DNA of 40,390 nt, taken from Methanothrix sp. Its GTDB lineage: Archaea; Halobacteriota; Methanosarcinia; Methanotrichales; Methanotrichaceae. The number at the start of each line of letters is the position of its first letter. Positions within the stretch are counted from its first letter, which is position 1. The notes beneath the pieces were generated by a model that did no database searches, was not told where the DNA came from, and worked only from the letters and a program-made list of their open reading frames with translations. The stretch covers positions 1 to 40,390 of the forward strand of contig JAXGJB010000022.1 in NCBI GenBank assembly GCA_040770465.1, given 5' to 3'. This document shows positions 9,298 to 24,223 of the stretch, piece after piece. The position numbers and the translations under genes are program-made.

Positions 9298-10674
9298 TCA
9301 CCTGAACAGCTTCGAGAAGCTCCTGCAACGATCGCCGATCTTCTTTGAGAGCGGCTCCTCGGCGGGAGTTTCGTCCCTTTGATGATCGAGTCTGCCATGG
9401 CACTTCTTGAACTTCAGCCCGCTTCCGCAGGGGCAGGGATCGTTTCGACCCGGCTTCAAAAACGCCCTTACCACCTTTCCCTCGTGAGATCCCGTATAGC
9501 TCATGATGTTGGCAGGAGCCCGGCCGGCCAGAAGCTCGCTCGCCATGAACCGCATCGAGCCGTCGATGTGTTTGAAGAACGCCCTGTAGCCGGGACAGAG
9601 ATAGTTGAGACCCGGCTCTCCATCGGGCGTTTTGACGAAGCGGTTCTTGGGACATTCGCCGTTGCAGACGAATCGAACCTCGCACCGGCGGCAGTATTCG
9701 GGCAGAGTATCAAGCTTGTCGCGGCCGAACTTCCGCTGCTTTGCCGAGCCGGCGATCTGAGCGAGGGGCATCTCGTTGATGTTGCCGAGGAGGTACTTCG
9801 GCTCGACGAAGTGGTCGCAGGAGTAGACGTCGCCGTTGTGCTCTACGACCATCGCCGTCCCGCAGGTCTCAGAGAAGGCGCATATCCCCGAAGGTCTTCC
9901 GAACCAGGCGGCGAGGGCGACATCGAAGATCTGGACGAAGGTCTTCCCCACGTCTCTTCTGACCCACTCGTCGAAGACGGCGATGAGAAAGCGGCCGTAC
10001 CTCTCGGGGTCCACCGAGCGGTCGGTGACGCGGTCGCCCTCCTGAAACCCCGTGGAGTTCTCCCTCTCAACGATGGGTATGAACTGGATGAAGTCGGTCT
10101 TCACCTCGTCTCGGAGGAATCGGTAGACCTCCAGGGGGTGGTCCTGGTTGGCGGCGTGGACCGTGGTCAGGATGTTGAAGTCGACCTTGTGCTTGCGGAG
10201 GAGGCGGGCGGCGTTCATCACCCGGTCGAAGGTGGGCCCTCCGGCCTTGTCCACCCGGTAGGCGTCGTGAAGCTCCCTCGGCCCGTCCAGGGAGAGGCCG
10301 ATGAGAAAGCCGTTCTCGCAAAAGAACTCGCACCATTCGTCGTCGAGGAGGGTGCCGTTGGTCTGCATGGTGTTCTGGAATTCTATTCCCGGGCGCCGAT
10401 ACTTCTCTTCGAGCGAGATGGACCTCCGGAAAAAGTCCAGCCCCATCAGGGTAGGCTCTCCCCCCTGCCAGGCGACGGTGACCGAGGGGTTCTTCTGGGA
10501 CTCCGTATACTGGCGGATATAGCTCTCAAGAAGCGAGTCGGACATCCGGAAGCTGCTCTTAGGATATAGGTCCTTCTTGGAGAGGAAGAAGCAGTATCTG
10601 CAGCCCAGATTGCAGATCGCCCCCGTGGGCTTTGCCATGAGATGAAAGCCGGGAAGTGGGCCCTTCTTGCTCAT
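9298..10674 (-). CDS. Anaerobic sulfatase-maturating enzyme (radical SAM/SPASM) with C-terminal SEC-C motif
   Basis: [14 protein letters not shown] (CxxxCxxC), WQGGEP, QTNG, SLDGP; SPASM cysteines ([24 protein letters not shown]); SEC-C motif [19 protein letters not shown]. Confidence 0.94.
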
Positions 10675-10782
10675 CGATTGGCGTTCTCTTTTCAGGGTTA
10701 ATTAAACTTCGCACATCCCGAAGATCCCCATTATGACCTTGAAATGAAAAACGTCGAGCGGCGGCAAAACCGGAGAGGCGCA

Positions 10783-12368
10783 GTTTCAATGGGGGCACGA
10801 CTTTTCAGCCATGGATAGGAGGAGATTCTGTGGAAACGCTTACTGGTGAATCAAGGATGGAATTTCAATGGGGCCACGACTTTTCAGCCATGGATAGCCA
10901 ACGAAACGCTCGAATGTGATGGCTACCTGGATGGTTTCAATGGGGCCACGACCCGAAGGTCATGGTAAGACGCCGACTGCCACCGTCAAGGTATACAGCA
11001 GAGACCTGGTTTCAATGGGGCCACGACCCGAAGGTCATGGTAAGATTTTACCCGGACGGACACACAGAATCGTCCGATAACGTTTCAATGGGGCCACGAC
11101 CCGAAGGTCATGGTAAGTGGTCAAGTGGTTAGGTCCTTCGATCTGGGAAGCCGAGGTTTCAATGGGGCCACGACCCGAAGGTCATGGTAAGAGGGAGGGA
11201 GATAGCCTCAATGACTAATAACAACGAGAGTTTCAATGGGGCCACGACCCGAAGGTCATGGTAAGTCTGGATATCCGTAGGCATGGCTCTGATGTGTGCC
11301 ATCCTGTTTCAATGGGGCCACGACCCGAAGGTCATGGTAAGCGAGGTGGATTGATGAAATATCACGTCTCCGAGGGGAAGTTTCAATGGGGCCACGACCC
11401 GAAGGTCATGGTAAGACCGCATTAAGGAAAACATTCCTATCTGCGGAATTGATCGTTTCAATGGGGCCACGACCCGAAGGTCATGGTAAGTATCCGTCGC
11501 GCTGCGAGCCTAAAGCCCCTTGCCGTATGTTTCAATGGGGCCACGACCCGAAGGTCATGGTAAGGAAACAAGTCGTCCGAGACGTAGCCGAAGCCCGGCG
11601 AGTTTCAATGGGGCCACGACCCGAAGGTCATGGTAAGTGAAATTCTTGTGTTTGGATACGATAGCGCAGACGACGTTTCAATGGGGCCACGACCCGAAGG
11701 TCATGGTAAGTGATGAGATCAAAGTGGAACCGACTGCGACTGCAAAGTTTCAATGGGGCCACGACCCGAAGGTCATGGTAAGACCAGAAAGCGCTTATCT
11801 TGGGCGACCTTCTGGTTATGTTTCAATGGGGCCACGACCCGAAGGTCATGGTAAGTGATGGCGGAGGACCAAGCAAGGATGAGAAAAAGATCGTTTCAAT
11901 GGGGCCACGACCCGAAGGTCATGGTAAGAGGAGGCGAACGAGACCATCCAGGAACTAACAGAGAAACGTTTCAATGGGGCCACGACCCGAAGGTCATGGT
12001 AAGCCGAGATTGCAATGCCTAACAATACCACAAATTTGCGGTTTCAATGGGGCCACGACCCGAAGGTCATGGTAAGAGTAAAATGAAGCAGAAACAACCA
12101 GGAATGAAGGTGTTTCAATGGGGCCACGACCCGAAGGTCATGGTAAGAAAGATATGGGTGTCCTTATTTCTGCTTATAAATTGGGTTTCAATGGGGCCAC
12201 GACCCGAAGGTCATGGTAAGAGTACCATGAATCCGAACCAAAGCGTGAAACTCGAAGGTTTCAATGGGGCCACGACCCGAAGGTCATGGTAAGAGAGAGT
12301 GATGACATAATGAAGCTACAAGATTGGGTAAAGTTTCAATGGGGCCACGACCCGAAGGTCATGGTAAG
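10783..12368 (-). CRISPR. CRISPR array: 22 repeats of 36 bp (20 of type B, 2 trailer repeats of type A) and 21 spacers of about 35-43 bp
   Basis: Type B (+ strand) GTTTCAATGGGGCCACGACCCGAAGGTCATGGTAAG occurs 20 times from 10934 to 12368. Type A (G/A)TTTCAATGGGG(G/C)CACGACTTTTCAGCCATGGATAG starts at 10783 and 10862. Minus-strand transcription is inferred from the 3' ATTGAAAC end, the stable tetraloops, and the leader and cas2 on the right. Confidence 0.98.
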
Positions 12369-12825
12369 AGCTAGAGTTTTACGACCTTAATGCATAGCGA
12401 AAAAAATCTATTTTGCGCGAACCTCCGTCACTTCTGCGATTCGATACAGAAGATAGCCCGATTTTTTGCCGTTTTCGATATGCAGAGACACTGCACGGAC
12501 GATTTTTTCAAATGTGCCAGCTGATATCGATGGGTTTTTTGAGGGGAGGTTCGCGCAAAAATCTCGGTTATTTTGACGGCTTCATAGAATTTTCGATATC
12601 GGGCAGCCATCAAACCGATGCATATCGATTATCTCTTTGCTATGCCCTGGGATGGGTATAGCGTTATCCATCCGTCTGGATCGAATGGCCTTTGATCAGC
12701 TATCAAAGGGGCTTATTCACCCAGATGCCCTTTTTTGTATGTGGTGGATTTGACTGCTATTAAACCTTTTGCCACCTGCCCCACCACGCCAGCATAACAA
12801 TTAACGTTTATTGATAATAGTATGA
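12369..12825 (-). promoter_or_regulatory. CRISPR leader with a 16-bp inverted repeat and a candidate BRE/TATA
   Basis: AT-rich non-coding stretch between cas2 and the first repeat. TTTTGCGCGAACCTCC (12411-12426) pairs with GGAGGTTCGCGCAAAA (12545-12560). Minus-strand AAAAGGTTTAATAG at about 12757-12770 points toward the array. Confidence 0.75.
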
Positions 12826-13134
12826 TTATACTATTATGTACTTCCTCCTGGGCGAACCTAGCGGTGCGACCCCCAAAAACTCGATCCTATCCTCCATCCA
12901 TCCTTCTGCCGGTCCCATGTCGATGATCATGATCCGATCCTTTTCTGGTTCCATGATATCCAATAGAGCTGCCTTCAGCTCCACCCGCCCCCTGCCGGTG
13001 AGCCGACATCCGAATACGGAATAATGGATGGGATCTCCAAAGCCCATCATCCTCTCATGAACCTTCTTCAGCCGCTTGACGTCCATGATGTCGTAGCTCA
13101 CGATGTAGAAATGTAGCCCAGTCAGGGCCATCAC
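12826..13134 (-). CDS. cas2: CRISPR-associated endonuclease Cas2
   Basis: YIVSYDI..KRLKKV....GFG..IHYSVF.C.L pattern; about 100 aa; directly downstream of cas1 and next to the leader. Confidence 0.93.
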   Translation of the reverse strand: MMALTGLHFYIVSYDIMDVKRLKKVHERMMGFGDPIHYSVFGCRLTGRGRVELKAALLDIMEPEKDRIMIIDMGPAEGWMEDRIEFLGVAPLGSPRRKYIIV

Positions 13135-13421
13135 CTCCGAGAGAAGGGCGGATACTCCGCTATCTCCCCGGAGAGGACCCGAGAGAGAAGCCTCGCCTGA
13201 ACCTCCATCACCCTCCGATAGGAGAGCTTGTAGCCGAACAAGGGATGCCTCACCTCGGTCCCAACGCGGTGCTCATAGGCGGCAAGCACCTTCCTCTTCG
13301 CCGACGGCTCCATCGTGACCCCAAGTTCAGTCACCAGAAAATCGTCTTTCTTCAGCTCTCTGTTGTTGAAGAGGGCTATGACCACCGGCTCGGCGACTTG
13401 TGGCCGGAACTCCTCAATCAA
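13131..13421 (-). pseudogene. cas1: 3' fragment of cas1 (about 96 codons; resembles the C-terminus of type I-G/I-U Cas4-Cas1)
   Basis: EEFRP..A..VV, YEHR...EVRHPLFGYKLSYRRVMEVQARLL...L.GEIAEYPPF. Similarity starts abruptly at the (D)LxEEFR motif; upstream is the T-tract and stop of the sulfatase gene. Confidence 0.9.
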
Positions 13422-13431
13422 AAAAAAGAAT
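13420..13431 (-). terminator. Oligo-T archaeal terminator candidate for the sulfatase gene
   Basis: Minus-strand TTCTTTTTTTT about 30 nt after the sulfatase stop codon. Confidence 0.5.
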
Positions 13432-13462
13432 GGAGGGGAGAAAGGAGACGCTTTCGTCTCCG

Positions 13463-15160
13463 TCAGCTCGCTCCCGACGAGATCGGATACGCCCTCGAAG
13501 GAGTATTCGGATACTCCACCATGCTGGCCACAAGCCCTCGATAGATCCTGGTGAACGCGCTGATGACGAAATCGTGCTCACCTGCGATGTTGTGCTCCTC
13601 ACGGGGGTCCATCTCGATGTTGTAGACAGCGGGGATCTGGCCGTAATAGCTCTCAGGCCCCTGGAACGAGTCGTACCCCTTGGTGACGACCTTGAACTGA
13701 TGCCACCTGACGGCCGCGGGAATCGTGTTGGCCGCGCTATCGGTTCCGATGTACCAGACCACCCACTCCCGGTTCGAGTCATCCTGTCTTCCGAGGATGA
13801 ACTCCGACTGGTCTATGCCGTCGATCGGCCTGTCCGCGGGGATCTCGCCGCCGCCAAGGACGACCAGGGTGGTGAAGAGGTCGAGGGTGCACATGATCCC
13901 GTTCGACGACCTATCGGCCTCGATCATTCCAGGCCACCAGAATATGCAGGGAACCCTGACGCCGCCTTCATAGATTGTGCCTATCCCGCCCCGGAAAGGC
14001 GAGTACCCCGAGTCTGGCCACTGGTCGAGGGTCGGCCCGTTGTCGCTCGTCAGAACGACGATGGTGTTGTTCTCGATCCCAGCCTCACGGAGGGTGTCAA
14101 GAACCTCTCCGACGTAAGAGTCCATCTCCATCAACCCGTCGCCGTAGGCGCCTTTGCTGGACTTGCCAGCCCATTTCGGGTTCTGAACGCTGGGGAAATG
14201 AGTCCGGACGAAGGGGAGGTAGACGAAGAAGGGCTCGGTGGAGTTCGACTGATTCTTGATGTAAGCGATCGCCCTCTCAGTACACTGCTCATCAATGAAC
14301 GCCAGCGACGATACGTTCAACGCCGCAACCTGAGTGAGGTTCTCGCCTTTCTTCGCCTCCACCAACCCCAGGGGCTCTCCCGACTCCCAGCTGGAGTCGA
14401 AGCCGATCCGCTCGCTCTGGGTGTAGGAGTTGAGGTGATACAAAACCCCGAAGTATTCGTCAAAGCCCATGTTCTGAGGCTCACTCTCGTAGATGTCCCC
14501 AAGATGCCACTTGCCGAACATCGCCGTATTATAGCCGGCATCTGACAGCACCCTCGCCAGGGTCCTCTCGTCGGGAGATATGCCGGCGTTTGATCCGGTC
14601 TCCGACGCCAGAGCCATCCCCGTCCGGATGGGGAGCCTCCCGGTCAGCATCGCCGCCCGTGTGGGGGTGCACTGGGTCTCCGAGTAGAAGGATGTCAGCC
14701 TCAGACCCTCTTTTGCCATCTCGTCCATCCTGGGTGTCGGAGCGCCCAGCACCGCCCCGCCGCCGTAGCAGCCTGGGTCCATGTACCCCATGTTGTCGGC
14801 GAGCATGATCACGATGTTCGGCCTTGGGGCCGGCGCCACGTCCTCATGCATCGCCTGCTGAAGGCTGGAGTTGTTGGCGAGAACATTTTTCCTGTTCGTT
14901 ACGACGTCCGCACCCATGTCCTCTGGAGCGTCCGCCTGATCGTCACCTGTCCCATTATCGCCTGAGCCGCCGGCTTTCAGATCCAGTGGTATGACGGACA
15001 GGCCAGTGTTCCCTGAATCAAGGCCGCCTGCAGCGATAAAAATTACAAAAAAAGCTGCTATAGCCAATTTGAATAGAAGCCCAATTTTGATACAGACTCC
15101 TCCAATGCGGGTAATTTGCCTTTTTCTTATATAACTATTCTTCCATGATTTCATCTTCAA
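13463..15160 (-). CDS. Cys-type formylglycine-dependent sulfatase (arylsulfatase family) with N-terminal hydrophobic anchor/signal
   Basis: PNIVIMLADNMG, QCTPTRAAMLTGR (CxPxR), GKWHLG, SDNG and YEGGVRVP. The start is uncertain (TTG 15160 or ATG 15154). Confidence 0.93.
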   Translation of the reverse strand: MKMKSWKNSYIRKRQITRIGGVCIKIGLLFKLAIAAFFVIFIAAGGLDSGNTGLSVIPLDLKAGGSGDNGTGDDQADAPEDMGADVVTNRKNVLANNSSLQQAMHEDVAPAPRPNIVIMLADNMGYMDPGCYGGGAVLGAPTPRMDEMAKEGLRLTSFYSETQCTPTRAAMLTGRLPIRTGMALASETGSNAGISPDERTLARVLSDAGYNTAMFGKWHLGDIYESEPQNMGFDEYFGVLYHLNSYTQSERIGFDSSWESGEPLGLVEAKKGENLTQVAALNVSSLAFIDEQCTERAIAYIKNQSNSTEPFFVYLPFVRTHFPSVQNPKWAGKSSKGAYGDGLMEMDSYVGEVLDTLREAGIENNTIVVLTSDNGPTLDQWPDSGYSPFRGGIGTIYEGGVRVPCIFWWPGMIEADRSSNGIMCTLDLFTTLVVLGGGEIPADRPIDGIDQSEFILGRQDDSNREWVVWYIGTDSAANTIPAAVRWHQFKVVTKGYDSFQGPESYYGQIPAVYNIEMDPREEHNIAGEHDFVISAFTRIYRGLVASMVEYPNTPSRAYPISSGAS

Positions 15161-19461: not shown

Positions 19462-22032
19462 CTAACCTTCGACCTCCAATACGACCTTCTCCAGGGTCCC
19501 GTTGAACTCGAACGGGCTCTCGTAGCTCTCGGCGACCGGGGTCTGGGGGTCCTTCCCCACCTCAAGCCCCTCCTCGAAGGAGTATCTGGACGGCTGTGTC
19601 ACCACCTCGGCGCTGCCCTCCTCCTGGCCGTCGATGTAAAGTGTTGAGACGCCCCCGTGGCTTGCAGTCAGATCGAAGTCCATCGTCAGGACGGAGGGAC
19701 CGGCCGGGACCTCAGAGGTCGACGTCACTGTATAATGTCTTATGCCCACGAAGTTGTATTCGTAGACGAGATGACCGTCCATGACGAAAAGCGATAGACC
19801 GCCGAAACGCCCGCCTATGGAGAAGAGGACCCCCTCGGCGCCAGCTTCAGGAACGTCCACATAGGCCGTGATCGTATAGGAGTGGTTCAGCGTGTCGGGC
19901 AGCTCCGGCTCGACGATCTTCTCAGTGCCCGGATAGTAGGCGAAGACGCCGGTGATGGGGGTCGGCTGGAACCTGACCTTCTGGCGATCGTCCAGGGGGA
20001 GGACGTTGTACTTGCCGGCCTCGCTGAACCAGAGGTCTATCATCTCCCGGAGCATCAGAGGATATTCGGAGGCCAGGTCGTGGACCTCGGAGAAGTCTTC
20101 GTCGGTGTTGTAAAGCTCCCAGGTGTCGTTGATGAAGTCGCCGCCGGATTCTGGCGGATGGTAAGCCGTGGCCTTCCAGCCGTTGTACCAGAGGGCTCTG
20201 TTGCCGACCATCTCATAGTACTGGATGTACTTGCCCGTATCTGCCTCGGGGTCGGTGAGGCTCGCAGCAAAGCTGACCCCTTCGATCGGCTTCTGGGAAT
20301 ATCCGTTGTAGACCTCGGGCGCCGAGAGCCCCAGGATCTCCAGGACCGTGGGAACTATGTCGACGGCATGGGTGTATTGCTCCCTTAATCCTCCCCCATC
20401 CTCTATCAGCGCCGGGTAGTAGACGATCATGGGGTCGTGGATCCCGCCCTCGTGGGTGTTCTGCTTGTACCTTTTGAAGGGCGTGTTCCCGGCCATGGCC
20501 CATCCTTCGGCGTAGTGGTTCCAGGTCGTTGTTCCGCCGAGCTCGTCGATATGAGCGAGGATTGATGCCAGGTTCTCGTTGATGCGGTTAAAGTAGAGGT
20601 AGTTGTTCGAGGTACCGTTAAATCCGCCCTCCCGGCTGGCTCCGTTATCCGATACGAGTATGATCATCGTGCCGTTCAGCTGGCCCGCCTCTTCGAGGTG
20701 GTCCAAAAACCGCCCGATCTGGGCGTCTGTATGGGTCAAAAACCCGGCGTAGACCTCCTGCTCCCTCGCAAAGACCATCTGCTGGTCTTCGTTCAGCTCC
20801 TCCCAGGCGGGGATATCGGGGTTTCTCGGGGGAAGCTCTGTATCTTCGGGCACGATTCCACTCGCTTTCTGCCGCGCAAGGGTCTCGTTTCGGACGGCAT
20901 CCCAGCCCTCATCGAACCTTCCCTTGTACATGTCTATGTACTCCTGGGGAGCGTGATGGGGAGCGTGGCAGGCTCCGAAGGAGAGGTACATGAAGTAGGG
21001 ATGGTCCGGCTCCGCAGCCTGCTGACTATTTATAAATCCTATGGCGTGGTCGACCAGGTCCTCGGAGATGTGGTACCCCTCTTCAGGAGATTTTGGCGGG
21101 TCGACCCTGGTGGTTCCACTGACCAGATCTGGGTACCACTGGTTTGTCTCGGATCCGATGAACCCGTAGTACTTTTCAAAGCCCCTGCCTGTTGGCCAGT
21201 TATCGAAAGGCCCACCTGCATTAAAGTGCTCTGAGAGGTGCCATTTGCCGACGGCGAAGGTGTTGAAGCCGTTTGAAACGAGGATCTCAGGCAACGTGGC
21301 CGCGTTCTTCGAGAGGGTCATGCTGTAGCCGGGGTAGCCGGCGGGCAGCTCCATGACGGCCCCTATTCCGACGGAATGGTGGTTTCTGCCGGTCAGGAGG
21401 CAGGCCCTCGTCGGAGAGCACATGGCCGTCGTATGGAAGTTGTTGTAGCGAAGACCCCCAGCCGCCAGCCGATCGATGTTGGGGGTCTCAATCGGCCCTC
21501 CGAAGCACCCTATCTGGCCGAAGCCGACGTCGTCCAGGACGATGAAGACGACGTTGGGAGTTCCCTTTGGAGGCTGCACCGCCACCTCAGGGCAGGGCGT
21601 CGAGTCCTTGTAAGAGATGCCGATGACCGGCTCGCAGCCAGAGGTCGAGCTGTAGGCGGATTCCTCGACGGCGAGATCTCCGCTGGTGGTCTCGGAAGCC
21701 TCGGTGCCCTCATCCTGGCCATCCTCACCGACCTGGACTCCAGCTCCGGCCGCCATGACCACGAGGCGGGGCTCTCCTCGGGGCAGAACGACGTCCTCTT
21801 CGGCCACCGATTCCAGATCCGCGTTCCTGGCCAGAACCTTTCTTCTATTCGTCAATTGTTCATTGCCGGATCTGCTCAGGGCGTCATCTCCCTGGTCATC
21901 GATTTCGTCGGACAATAACGGCATGTTAGTCTCAAAGCTATCTTCTCCCTCTTCTGGCACCGCAAGTGTCGTCACAGAGAGGAGCAATATGAAAACAACG
22001 GTCAGGATAGCGGCAAAATCCCTTCTCAGCGT
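19462..22032 (-). CDS. Large AtsA-like Cys-type arylsulfatase with signal peptide and C-terminal beta-sandwich domain; start codon apparently ACG
   Basis: PNVVFIVLDDVG, MCSPTRACLLTGRNHH, GKWHL, HAPHH, SDNGAS and HEGG. The frame stays open upstream of the TTG at 21987 up to an ACG at 22032 that lies 7 nt after GGAGG. Confidence 0.93.
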   Translation of the reverse strand, partial: TLRRDFAAILTVVFILLLSVTTLAVPEEGEDSFETNMPLLSDEIDDQGDDALSRSGNEQLTNRRKVLARNADLESVAEEDVVLPRGEPRLVVMAAGAGVQVGEDGQDEGTEASETTSGDLAVEESAYSSTSGCEPVIGISYKDSTPCPEVAVQPPKGTPNVVFIVLDDVGFGQIGCFGGPIETPNIDRLAAGGLRYNNFHTTAMCSPTRACLLTGRNHHSVGIGAVMELPAGYPGYSMTLSKNAATLPEILVSNGFNTFAVGKWHLSEHFNAGGPFDNWPTGRGFEKYYGFIGSETNQWYPDLVSGTTRVDPPKSPEEGYHISEDLVDHAIGFINSQQAAEPDHPYFMYLSFGACHAPHHAPQEYIDMYKGRFDEGWDAVRNETLARQKASGIVPEDTELPPRNPDIPAWEELNEDQQMVFAREQEVYAGFLTHTDAQIGRFLDHLEEAGQLNGTMIILVSDNGASREGGFNGTSNNYLYFNRINENLASILAHIDELGGTTTWNHYAEGWAMAGNTPFKRYKQNTHEGGIHDPMIVYYPALIEDGGGLREQYTHAVDIVPTVLEILGLSAPEVYNGYSQKPIEGVSFAASLTDPEADTGKYIQYYEMVGNRALWYNGWKATAYHPPESGGDFINDTWELYNTDEDFSEVHDLASEYPLMLREMIDLWFSEAGKYNVLPLDDRQKVRFQPTPITGVFAYYPGTEKIVEPELPDTLNHSYTITAYVDVPEAGAEGVLFSIGGRFGGLSLFVMDGHLVYEYNFVGIRHYTVTSTSEVPAGPSVLTMDFDLTASHGGVSTLYIDGQEEGSAEVVTQPSRYSFEEGLEVGKDPQTPVAESYESPFEFNGTLEKVVLEVEG

Positions 22033-22312: not shown

Positions 22313-22471
22313 AGATACGTATTAGATTCTATTATCGCCTTATAAATTGCTCTTAACTTCAACAGGATGTAGGGGATCACAATAATTACTTGACAAGCTG
22401 AAATCAGCTTTCTATGCCGTTCCAGGGAGAGCTATTTGATAAGGCGTAGCGTGACGAACAGGAGAAGAAAC

Positions 22472-24223
22472 ATGAAAATTGGAAAATATTCCCAGGCGAT
22501 AATCTTTTTGTGCTTTTTATGGTTATCGTCCGCATCGGCCTTTGAGCCCGAGTCGGTGGCCGCCAACCCCGATCTCGTCGCCCTCAACGCGGGATGGGTG
22601 CCTCCCACCATCTACAACGTGACGGACGGGGTTTACGTGGCGGTGGGCTACGGTCGCGCAAACCCGGTTCTGATAGAGGGGACCGATGGCCTGATCGTGG
22701 TCGATCCCGGTGAGAGCACAACCTCCGCAGAGATGGTAAAGGCGGCCTACAACGAGCATCTCGACGACATATTCTCACGAAAGCCCGTCAAGGCCATCAT
22801 CTACACCCACTACCACGACTGCCACATGGAGGGGACCAGCGTATTTGCGGGGAACGACTCGCCCGAGATCATAGCTCACGAGACCTTTGAGAAGAATCTC
22901 TTTGGCCCGGCTGCTTTAGCTAGCCAGATCTTTCCGATCAAGGTATACCGGGCCGTGAAGTACGCGGGTATTCCGTACCAGAAAGATCCGGGCTACTTCG
23001 TAAACGGAGGGATCTTCCCCTTCTCGATCCCAGGCCCGTCTGGCTACCTGCCGCCCACCATGACCGTCGGCGACGAGCTGGAGACGAACATTGCCGGCAT
23101 AAACCTCACCCTGGTCCATGCGCCCGGGGAGACCACCGACATAATCTACGTATGGCTGCCCGACGATAAGGTGATAGTTCAGATCGGCAACTTCTACAGG
23201 TCGTTCCCGGCCATCAATACGCTTCGAGGCGCCTCTCACCGAGATCCTTTGAACTACATCGCCAGCATAGACGACATGAGGAAGCTCAACGCCGAATACC
23301 TGGTCCTGATCCACAGCGGCGGAGGGCCGATCGTCGGGGCTGAGAACGTCAGCCGCACCCTCACCAACGCCCGCGACGCTCTCCAGTACGTCCACGACCA
23401 GACCGTCCGCCTCATGAACCAGGGGCTCACCCCCGGTGAGATAATGGAGGAGATCCAGCTGCCGCCCCACCTCGCCAACGATCCTAATCTGAAGGAATAC
23501 TTCGGGGAGGTGGACCGGGACATATTCCAGATATTCCAGCAGTATATGGGATGGTTCACCGGCAAGAGCAGAGACATCTTCCCGACATCTCCTTCCGAAG
23601 AGGCGGAGAAGATGGCTTACCTCGCCGGCGGCATCGATGAGCTTGAGGTCAAAGCAAAGGCGGCTCTGGATGGGGGCAACATGAAATGGGCTCTGACCTT
23701 CTCAGACTACGTCCTCCTCCTCGATCCGGAGAACACTGAAGCTCGGGAGGTCAAGAACTCGGCGCTGCTCTCTCTCGCTGAAGAGTCCTCCAACGCTCAG
23801 GTGAGAAACTACCTCCTCTCCGAGTACCTCGAAGAGACGGGCCAGATAGAGATCCCGATAGAGAAAGGCTTCAGCCTATTGGACGATAATATCGTCTTCT
23901 ACATGCCCATGGAGACCGTATTCAGATGCATGGCCGTGAGCCTCAACGCCTCCAAGGCCCTGGATGAGGAGTACGCCGTCTCCCTCGAACTCTCGGATGA
24001 TCCAGTATCTGGCGACTATGCCATATATGTCCGGAGGGGGATTGTGGAGGTAGAGGAGGAGATCGCCAGCGATCCGAAGTTCACCATCGTCACCGACACG
24101 CTGACCTGGAAGAACCTGGTCATGGGCAAGCTCAACCCTGAGGAGGCCGTCTCCGGCGGGAGGGTCGAGATAAGCGGTGCCGATCCTGAGGAGTTCTACG
24201 GGTTCATGGACCTCTTCAAATGA
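22472..24223 (+). CDS. Secreted alkyl-sulfatase-like protein (SdsA1/BDS1 type: MBL fold, dimerisation domain, SCP2-like domain)
   Basis: Signal peptide from ATG 22472; VTDGVY, IEGTDGLIVVD, PVKAIIYTHYHDCH, APGET, TLRG, RDALQYVHDQTVRLMNQG, YMGWF and RNYLLS. Confidence 0.9.
   Translation: MKIGKYSQAIIFLCFLWLSSASAFEPESVAANPDLVALNAGWVPPTIYNVTDGVYVAVGYGRANPVLIEGTDGLIVVDPGESTTSAEMVKAAYNEHLDDIFSRKPVKAIIYTHYHDCHMEGTSVFAGNDSPEIIAHETFEKNLFGPAALASQIFPIKVYRAVKYAGIPYQKDPGYFVNGGIFPFSIPGPSGYLPPTMTVGDELETNIAGINLTLVHAPGETTDIIYVWLPDDKVIVQIGNFYRSFPAINTLRGASHRDPLNYIASIDDMRKLNAEYLVLIHSGGGPIVGAENVSRTLTNARDALQYVHDQTVRLMNQGLTPGEIMEEIQLPPHLANDPNLKEYFGEVDRDIFQIFQQYMGWFTGKSRDIFPTSPSEEAEKMAYLAGGIDELEVKAKAALDGGNMKWALTFSDYVLLLDPENTEAREVKNSALLSLAEESSNAQVRNYLLSEYLEETGQIEIPIEKGFSLLDDNIVFYMPMETVFRCMAVSLNASKALDEEYAVSLELSDDPVSGDYAIYVRRGIVEVEEEIASDPKFTIVTDTLTWKNLVMGKLNPEEAVSGGRVEISGADPEEFYGFMDLFK

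Follow-up and report, generated by a model that had tools for sequence, protein, structure and literature searches.

A Methanothrix CRISPR array with repeats of two lineages, a probable product of recombination

The array and its two repeat types

The 40,390-nt stretch of Methanothrix sp. DNA analysed here (the window, to which coordinates refer unless a contig is named; its genome is G000) carries a CRISPR array at 10783-12368 in which two types of repeat adjoin. We found 22 direct repeats of 36 nt, against a chance expectation of 0.04, separated by 21 unique spacers of 35-43 nt; the repeat length lies within the 23-47 nt expected of a CRISPR array. Twenty of the repeats (type B; 10934...12333; plus strand GTTTCAATGGGGCCACGACCCGAAGGTCATGGTAAG) are identical, with 0 mismatches, and together with their 19 spacers of 35-40 nt they fill 10934-12368. 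The other two (type A; plus strand ...CGACTTTTCAGCCATGGATAG) are found at 10862-10897 (A2) and at 10783-10818 (A1, the terminal repeat), with a 43-nt spacer between them (10819-10861) and a 36-nt junction spacer (10898-10933) leading from A2 into the first B repeat. On the far side of the B repeats lie a non-coding leader of ~455 nt (12369-12825), a cas2 gene of 102 aa (12826-13134; Pfam PF09827, E 9e-14) and a 96-aa 3′ fragment of cas1 (13131-13421), which matches positions 233-282 alone of the 283 in the Cas1 profile and is cut at the boundary of the module. An adjacent cas1-cas2 pair and a conserved leader accompany the array, though its cas1 is a stump, and all of these features are assigned to the minus strand. 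Because of the minus-strand reading of the repeat, ...CCCCATTGAAAC, and the position of the leader, we take the minus strand to be the CRISPR RNA (crRNA) strand and the A repeats to be the oldest, leader-distal units. An earlier reading made from the letters of the window (the sequence-only reading) had likewise placed the A repeats at the trailer end, and the leader, cas2 and the cas1 fragment are indeed at the opposite end.

Alignment of the repeats bore out the observation at the centre of that reading, namely that both A copies carry the same nine differences from the 20 identical B repeats. Seven of the nine fall among the eight bases of the loop and inner stem and two near the 5′ end on the crRNA strand, and no intermediate between A and B is present among the 22 repeats. 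The 3′ tail, CCCCAUUGAAA(C/U), is common to A and B, as had been claimed, and each point of that earlier description that could be checked proved right. Each A copy has, in addition, a private substitution: C>G at 10795 in A1, which removes the outermost stem pair, and G>A at 10862 in A2, which changes the crRNA handle to AUUGAAAU.

On the minus strand, B, A2 and B′ (a one-base variant of B found in related arrays) are predicted to adopt the same fold, an 8-bp stem capped by a tetraloop, ....((((((((....))))))))............, with folding energies of -13.5 kcal/mol for B, -14.5 kcal/mol for B′ and -10.7 kcal/mol for A2; A1, its outermost pair lost, keeps 7 bp at -7.6 kcal/mol. The folds and loops proposed in the sequence-only reading were recovered, with C(UUCG)G in B, where the loop is closed by C-G, and U(GAAA)A in A, where it is closed by U-A. 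Apart from this exchange of the closing pair, one A-U pair of the B stem becomes G-U in A. Across 19 distinct repeat variants from related genomes, standard pairs occupy 98.7% of pair cells, both sides have changed in a compensatory manner at 4 of the 8 stem pairs, and the observed covariation score is reached by 0 of 500 shuffles; pairing falls to 30-46% when the partners are slid. Given this pairing, these compensatory changes and the shuffle result, the hairpin is a conserved feature of the entire repeat family. The tetraloop swap between the two types stands as it was described but is less special than it had seemed, since the family sets GCAA, GAAU, UCCG and UUUG, as well as GAAA and UUCG, on the same stem, and it is one case of free loop variation on a fixed stem.

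Two repeat lineages in the Methanotrichaceae

The family survey covered 105 Methanotrichaceae genomes, of which G021, G023, G024, G029, G032 and G033 belong to the same genus as the window and G015 and G016 to another. The half-repeat TTTCAATGGGGCCACGAC is found, with at most 2 mismatches, in 70 of the 105. The sequence-only reading had proposed a search for arrays made purely of type A, and such arrays exist: copies of the exact A repeat make up a small array on C13, a contig of G000 itself, a 40-copy array in G023 and arrays of 6 and 23 copies in G024 (29 in the examined stretch), while G021, G029 and G033 contain one or two copies. B or B′ is present in G032 and G023, within the genus of the window, and in G015 and G016, outside it. 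The C13 array is one of three further arrays in G000, the others being a B′ array of 17 repeats without an A tail on C32 and, on C25, an array whose repeat is unrelated and unstructured, next to a type I-B operon that is complete and includes Cas6b.

Leaders group by repeat type, and the leader of the window array is of the B type. Some 400 nt of it are homologous to the B′ leaders of C32 (86.5% identity over 401 nt) and G032 (83%), and its identity to the B leaders found in the other genus is ~69%. The C13 and G023 leaders, both of the A type, match each other at 94%, and A and B leaders have only ~50 repeat-adjacent nt in common. The window Cas2 is 65% identical in protein sequence to the Cas2 beside the B array of G016, in the other genus, and 58-63% identical to the Cas2 proteins of A modules, of which those of C13 and G023 are 98% alike.

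A and B are separate living lineages, and neither is a decay product. The sequence-only reading had argued that random decay of the trailer was not the cause of the A repeats, and the survey agrees, both A and B being established repeat lineages, each with a leader family of its own. Since B occurs with its own leader in another genus, and the leaders are ~69% alike, the B lineage is older than the genus. The 5′ end of the A repeats in the window has the genus-specific form CTAT..., where other genera have ATTT, GTCT or CTGT; because of this form, and because the B lineage predates the genus, the A tail seems to derive from a contemporary A array of this genus and not from the origin of B.

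These results bear on an explanation by evolution in place, according to which the array was born as an A array, its leader-proximal repeat mutated stepwise to B and was copied at each later acquisition, and the two A repeats are what survives of the original form. The polarity agrees with this, the older form lying at the trailer and the newer one at the leader, and the process is the commonest pattern of repeat mutation reported in the Ou and McInerney preprint. One-step cases are moreover found in related arrays (G015_C76, CCCGG to CTCGG; G015_C65; G016_C25), the three old-end variants seen in B arrays of G015 and G016 lying 1-3 bases from the main repeat, with the older form at the trailer. 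In the window, however, nine changes would be required, including a compensatory pair and a whole loop, with 0 intermediates among 22 repeats; B, which has its own leader in another genus, predates the array; the A tail is genus-specific in form; and the leader is of the B and not of the A type. We therefore consider evolution in place improbable. Instead, the nine shared differences, the lack of intermediates, the older B lineage and the genus-specific A tail argue for recombination over drift, and the array is probably a natural recombinant of two paralogous I-G-like CRISPR modules, A and B, of one repeat superfamily. The sequence-only reading had suggested either recombination between arrays of related systems or replacement of the leader-end repeat; its idea that two related arrays are joined holds up, the window array having a B leader as well as A repeats, but a single route is not picked out by the data.

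The A-B junction and the origin of the array

In the proposed recombinant, a B leader and B repeats would have been joined to the tail of an A-type array, most likely by homologous recombination or gene conversion within 19 nt (GTTTCAATGGGGCCACGAC) that are identical in A and B. A crossover within these 19 nt leaves no hybrid repeat, which would account for the lack of one in the array. The graft could have put the B leader end on an A array or given a B array its A tail; the joined module, with its cas1 stump, would then have come to lie, or been retained, between genes for a radical SAM protein and a sulfatase, in place of a resident gene.

The whole module spans 10711-13438 and interrupts a synteny otherwise shared with relatives. 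Its neighbours, a radical SAM/SPASM gene (9298-10674, minus strand) and a sulfatase gene (13463-15160, minus strand), lie outside the CRISPR system and are syntenic in relatives: in G023 and G027 they neighbour each other with a gene of ~508 aa between them, a gene that is absent from G000. Because synteny with these two genomes breaks at 10710 and 13439, and because the ~508-aa gene stands at the site in both, the module from the cas1 stump to A1 forms a block that replaced this gene, with cas1 cut at the boundary.

An older A array at this same locus was considered and rejected: no repeats are found between the radical SAM and sulfatase genes of G023 and G027, and the half-repeat is found in 0 of 80 metagenome loci that encode radical SAM relatives (51-79% identity).

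A chimeric array could also be made by an assembler, through fusion of the C13 A array and a B array across the shared half of the repeat, a danger to which the sequence-only reading had itself drawn attention. The G000 assembly is a metagenome-assembled draft of 66 contigs (94.85% complete, 3.44% contamination), arrays pose difficulties for assemblers, and the same bin contains an array made purely of A. However, the exact stretch common to A and B is just 18-19 nt, the A copies of the window have private substitutions and spacers that are absent from C13, and the A end runs on into unique flank that is syntenic with relatives. Public, independently made contigs from run X1 match the window without differences, one of 432 nt at 10600-10892 and one of 106 nt at 10870-10970 that takes in the junction spacer, and jointly they run from the unique flank through A1, A2 and the junction spacer into the first B repeat. 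A related strain is present in runs X2 and X3, which like X5 cover parts of the stretch only; it shares the flank-A1 junction, with 6 differences over 129 nt, but has a different next spacer; both runs also hold contigs that depart from the window sequence at 10719, which is consistent with strains that lack the module. A-B junctions are present in two other assemblies as well, one of them of 2 contigs only. With the X1 contigs bridging the A2-spacer-B junction, mis-assembly is very unlikely to be the cause, and we give it next to no credence.

A junction in which A is followed by B toward the leader was found in 3 of the 105 genomes, all of this genus (the window, G023 and G032), and the reverse polarity in 0 of 105, using patterns that need exact matches in specified parts and that decayed copies would escape. 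The G023 junction is a leaderless remnant in which a vapBC cassette separates a degenerate A from a further A repeat, which is followed by a spacer and a B repeat, and that of G032 reads A, nucleotidyltransferase/HEPN cassette, A, spacer and B′, followed by the contig end. Three junctions of the same polarity in one genus could descend from one old event, a single B-leader/A-tail chimera in the ancestor of the genus that was afterwards copied, moved and trimmed to give those found in G023, in G032 and in the window. Were a deletion to pass over the junction via the shared half, a new junction spacer and no hybrid repeat would be expected, and the G023 remnant retains vapBC genes and a degenerate end repeat that match the tail of the A array on C13 at 84% identity. 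Yet no spacer is common to the three junctions, an A tail is lacking from the B′ array on C32 of G000, and the loci are not syntenic, no synteny with the window or with C32 being found at the G032 and G023 junctions. We regard a single ancestral event as unlikely, though worth keeping in mind.

Because all three junctions have B on the leader side and none is reversed, it is conceivable, if doubtful, that A arrays in this genus have their growing end repeatedly overwritten by cassettes of B leader plus repeat. If so, leader/repeat modules would be competing semi-autonomous units that spread by recombination through the conserved half of the repeat, the shared hairpin and handle would let both modules use the same Cas6 and effector, and the repeat-bounded toxin-antitoxin cassettes at array tails would represent a second product of repeat-mediated recombination.

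Toxin-antitoxin cassettes between trailer-end repeats are found at C13:42558-44979 (L002), where VapB/PIN is accompanied by an MqsA-like gene, in G023 (L065) and at G015:C76 (L042:10995-11970), where the content is VapB/PIN, and at G032:C262 (L067), where it is nucleotidyltransferase/HEPN. The unit made of vapBC and the degenerate end repeat, 84% identical between C13 and G023 as noted above, is ~73% identical to that of G015, in another genus; since its identity spans genera, the unit is an old, conserved array tail. On C13 an IS5-family transposase (C13:45115-46050; L002:6115-7050) comes directly after the degenerate end repeat, between the array and a type III operon.

Several results weigh against the recombinant origin or limit what can be drawn from the evidence for it. 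Neither the two A-linked spacers nor the 72-nt trailer flank has a match elsewhere in the genome or in the searched loci (a database without L080-L159), the trailer flanks of ten arrays have no convincing sequence in common with that of the window, and the A-array trailers are not clearly homologous to it; the spacer and flank search did not identify a donor array. The three junctions have three unrelated spacers, with none in common, and one inherited event and several independent ones cannot be told apart, while the 3-versus-0 polarity count carries no statistical weight because the genomes are related. Run X1 is possibly the source sample and consists of short contigs rather than long reads, so it tests the assembler and not the biology, and the statements that the arrays belong to the same genome and that this genome has one Cas6 candidate (see below) depend on the binning of the 66-contig draft. 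Finally, on contig C16 of G021 (L021), where a solitary A repeat has an A leader of another, second kind that resembles the leader of the 23-repeat G024 array, an 86-nt cas2 fragment beside the repeat has 92% DNA identity to the window cas2. The window cas2 may not be native to the B module, and it does not fix the direction of the graft. Because of this fragment, and because a window-like cas2 is linked to a B leader in G016, cas2, leader and repeats have been shuffled more than once in the group.

Recombination of arrays has precedents. In the Sulfolobales, as PMC4390879 describes, different CRISPR loci of one cell can recombine their spacer-repeat units, co-evolving repeats, leaders and Cas1 form modules that are exchanged, and vapBC pairs are interspersed in cas cassettes. 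The themes of locus recombination, module exchange and vapBC recur here, but the two partners belong to repeat lineages that can be told apart, so that a single array is visibly chimeric, and the host is a methanogen of the Methanotrichaceae. Divergent repeats are usual at the leader-distal end, according to PMC8047081 and the Ou and McInerney preprint, and the variants of the window sit there too; unlike degenerate terminal repeats, however, the A repeats equal the consensus of a living lineage and keep the hairpin by way of a compensatory pair. A limited full-text literature search, which did not cover subscription papers, found no description of chimeric or hybrid arrays of two lineages. 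Each element is already described in the same sources (PMC8047081, PMC4390879, Ou and McInerney preprint): terminal repeats that diverge, mutations of the leader-end repeat that propagate, arrays that recombine internally or with one another, and modules of leader, repeat and Cas1 that are exchanged; nothing further on these points came from PMC12814883. What the window shows is a known process, array recombination, with an unusually legible product and not a new kind of system. It offers a clean natural case of one array from two living repeat lineages, and its sequence would be direct evidence for inter-module recombination via a conserved repeat half. Where the order of spacers is used as a record of time, such a case means that the old end of an array can differ in origin from the rest.

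Processing, effectors and surrounding genes

The sequence-only reading had pointed to the cas genes beside pure A arrays as informative, and these comprise a Cas4/Cas1 fusion, cas2 and type III effector genes, with a Csb2-like Cas6 candidate nearby. In G023 pure A arrays have as neighbours a 660-aa Cas4g/Cas1g fusion and cas2, together with a Cmr1-6 operon and a protein of 349 aa whose match is to the C-terminal half of Csb2. The C13 A array of G000 has a truncated cas1 and cas2 alongside, and 5-13 kb past its end repeat lies a type III operon with Csx11 (E 4e-136), a Cmr4-like and a Cmr1-like protein and further repeat-associated mysterious proteins (RAMPs); Csx3 is also encoded downstream. 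C13 thus bears a Cas10-family large subunit and Cas7-like RAMPs near an array of the same repeat family, the combination expected of a type III effector able to use these crRNAs.

The Cas6 candidate of G000 is a Csb2-like protein of 344 aa (C13:57346-58377), which matches positions 242-491 of the 492 in the Csb2 profile with E 3e-23 and is the only full Csb2-family match in this genome. Full-length Csb2 is a Cas5-Cas6 fusion of ~490 aa; since just the C-terminal, Cas6-like half of the profile is matched, the 344-aa protein is a stand-alone relative and not Csb2. Homologues of it are found in 55 of the 105 genomes, 49 of which also have the half-repeat, and among genomes with at least 5 half-repeat matches 32 of 36 carry the gene (co-occurrence tabulated by hand from the family-wide searches). 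One homologue is encoded ~3 kb from the B array of G015 and another on the G032 contig that bears the B′ repeat and leader. The fold of a Cas6 endoribonuclease has two RRM-like domains and, at the C-terminus, a glycine-rich loop. Structure prediction lends the assignment to Cas6 weak support and in this respect counts against it: the model has a mean pLDDT (predicted local distance difference test) of 62.7, its top Foldseek matches are Cas6 proteins at E 5e-4 with template-modelling (TM) scores of 0.2-0.35, and the VIA Z of 6.2 for Cas6 chains, spanning residues 75-323, is tied with that of unrelated single-domain RRM-like proteins. The candidate has no Pfam match, and against the sequences of solved structures it gave chance-level matches only. 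No match to Pfam Cas6 (PF01881) or TIGR01877 was found in G000, where the Cas6b of the I-B locus was detected only by Pfam Cas6b_N/C; the I-G proteins Cas7g/Csb1 and Cas8g/Csx17 were not matched in G000 either, in searches that were also silent in all 14 control genomes.

Past the stem, A and B alike continue with CCCC and AUUGAAAC. According to 10.1101/2022.08.08.503147, the C-terminal Cas6-like domain of Csb2 binds a hairpin and cuts 4 nt 3′ of the stem to leave an 8-nt handle, and the geometry of the A and B repeats, as read from their sequences, equals this reported cut geometry. In the model that we propose, transcription of the minus strand would proceed from the leader, an endoribonuclease of the Cas6 type, akin to the C-terminal domain of type I-G Csb2, would bind the 8-bp hairpin and cut 4 nt downstream of the stem, between CCCC and AUUGAAAC, leaving the 8-nt 5′ handle, and the crRNAs would load into the type III (Csx11-type) effector encoded on C13. 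We infer transcription, cleavage site and effector loading alike from sequence, which is a further point on the debit side of the model. Because the stem, the CCCC and the handle are equal in A and B, one enzyme is expected to cut both at the same position, yielding crRNAs that share the 5′ handle used by type III complexes; the sequence-only reading had likewise suggested that one nuclease may handle both types. With A and B compatible in processing, as proposed, the shared hairpin, 4-nt spacer and 8-nt handle would allow the chimera to be tolerated, with no selection against it. The array may also be viewed as a natural specificity experiment for a little-studied stand-alone relative of Csb2 of the Cas6 kind, one in which the loop and its closing pair are exchanged on a constant background of stem, 4-nt spacer and handle; the variety of loops in the family predicts that stem and tail, rather than loop, are recognized.

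The resemblance to type I-G extends to the 36-nt repeat, to the hairpin followed by 4 + 8 nt, to the adaptation genes of the Cas4g/Cas1g kind beside the A arrays of G023 and to a protein matching the Cas6-like half of Csb2. Unlike in type I-G, the 344-aa protein has no Cas5-like N-terminal half and the neighbouring effector genes are of type III.

The I-G-like adaptation modules of G000 (C13:41226-41921; 13131-13421 in the window) both have a 5′-truncated cas1, which abuts an unrelated gene, encoding an aldehyde dehydrogenase on C13 and a sulfatase in the window. The only intact cas1 in the assembly is that of the type I-B locus on C25. Since its own cas1 is a stump and the sole intact copy belongs to the I-B locus, the window array probably no longer grows by means of its own integrase.

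The type I-B locus itself, at C25:9420-21498 (L007, L008), is complete, with cas1, cas2, cas4, cas8b, cas7, cas5, cas3 and cas6b, and beside its genes stands a long array (C25:18690-21498) of the unstructured repeat, which is 37 nt in length. This repeat ends in the same ATTGAAAC handle as A and B, and for that reason handle-dependent effectors might share crRNAs of the C25 and A/B arrays.

The genes on either side of the CRISPR module belong to a sulfatase-related cluster in the window (13463-15160, 19462-21987, 22436-24223 and 9298-10674), which includes sulfatase genes, an alkyl-sulfatase-like metallo-beta-lactamase and the radical SAM/SPASM protein, which has a SEC-C motif. The last of these resembles an anaerobic sulfatase-maturating enzyme, and for a methanogen the gene content of the cluster is unexpected.

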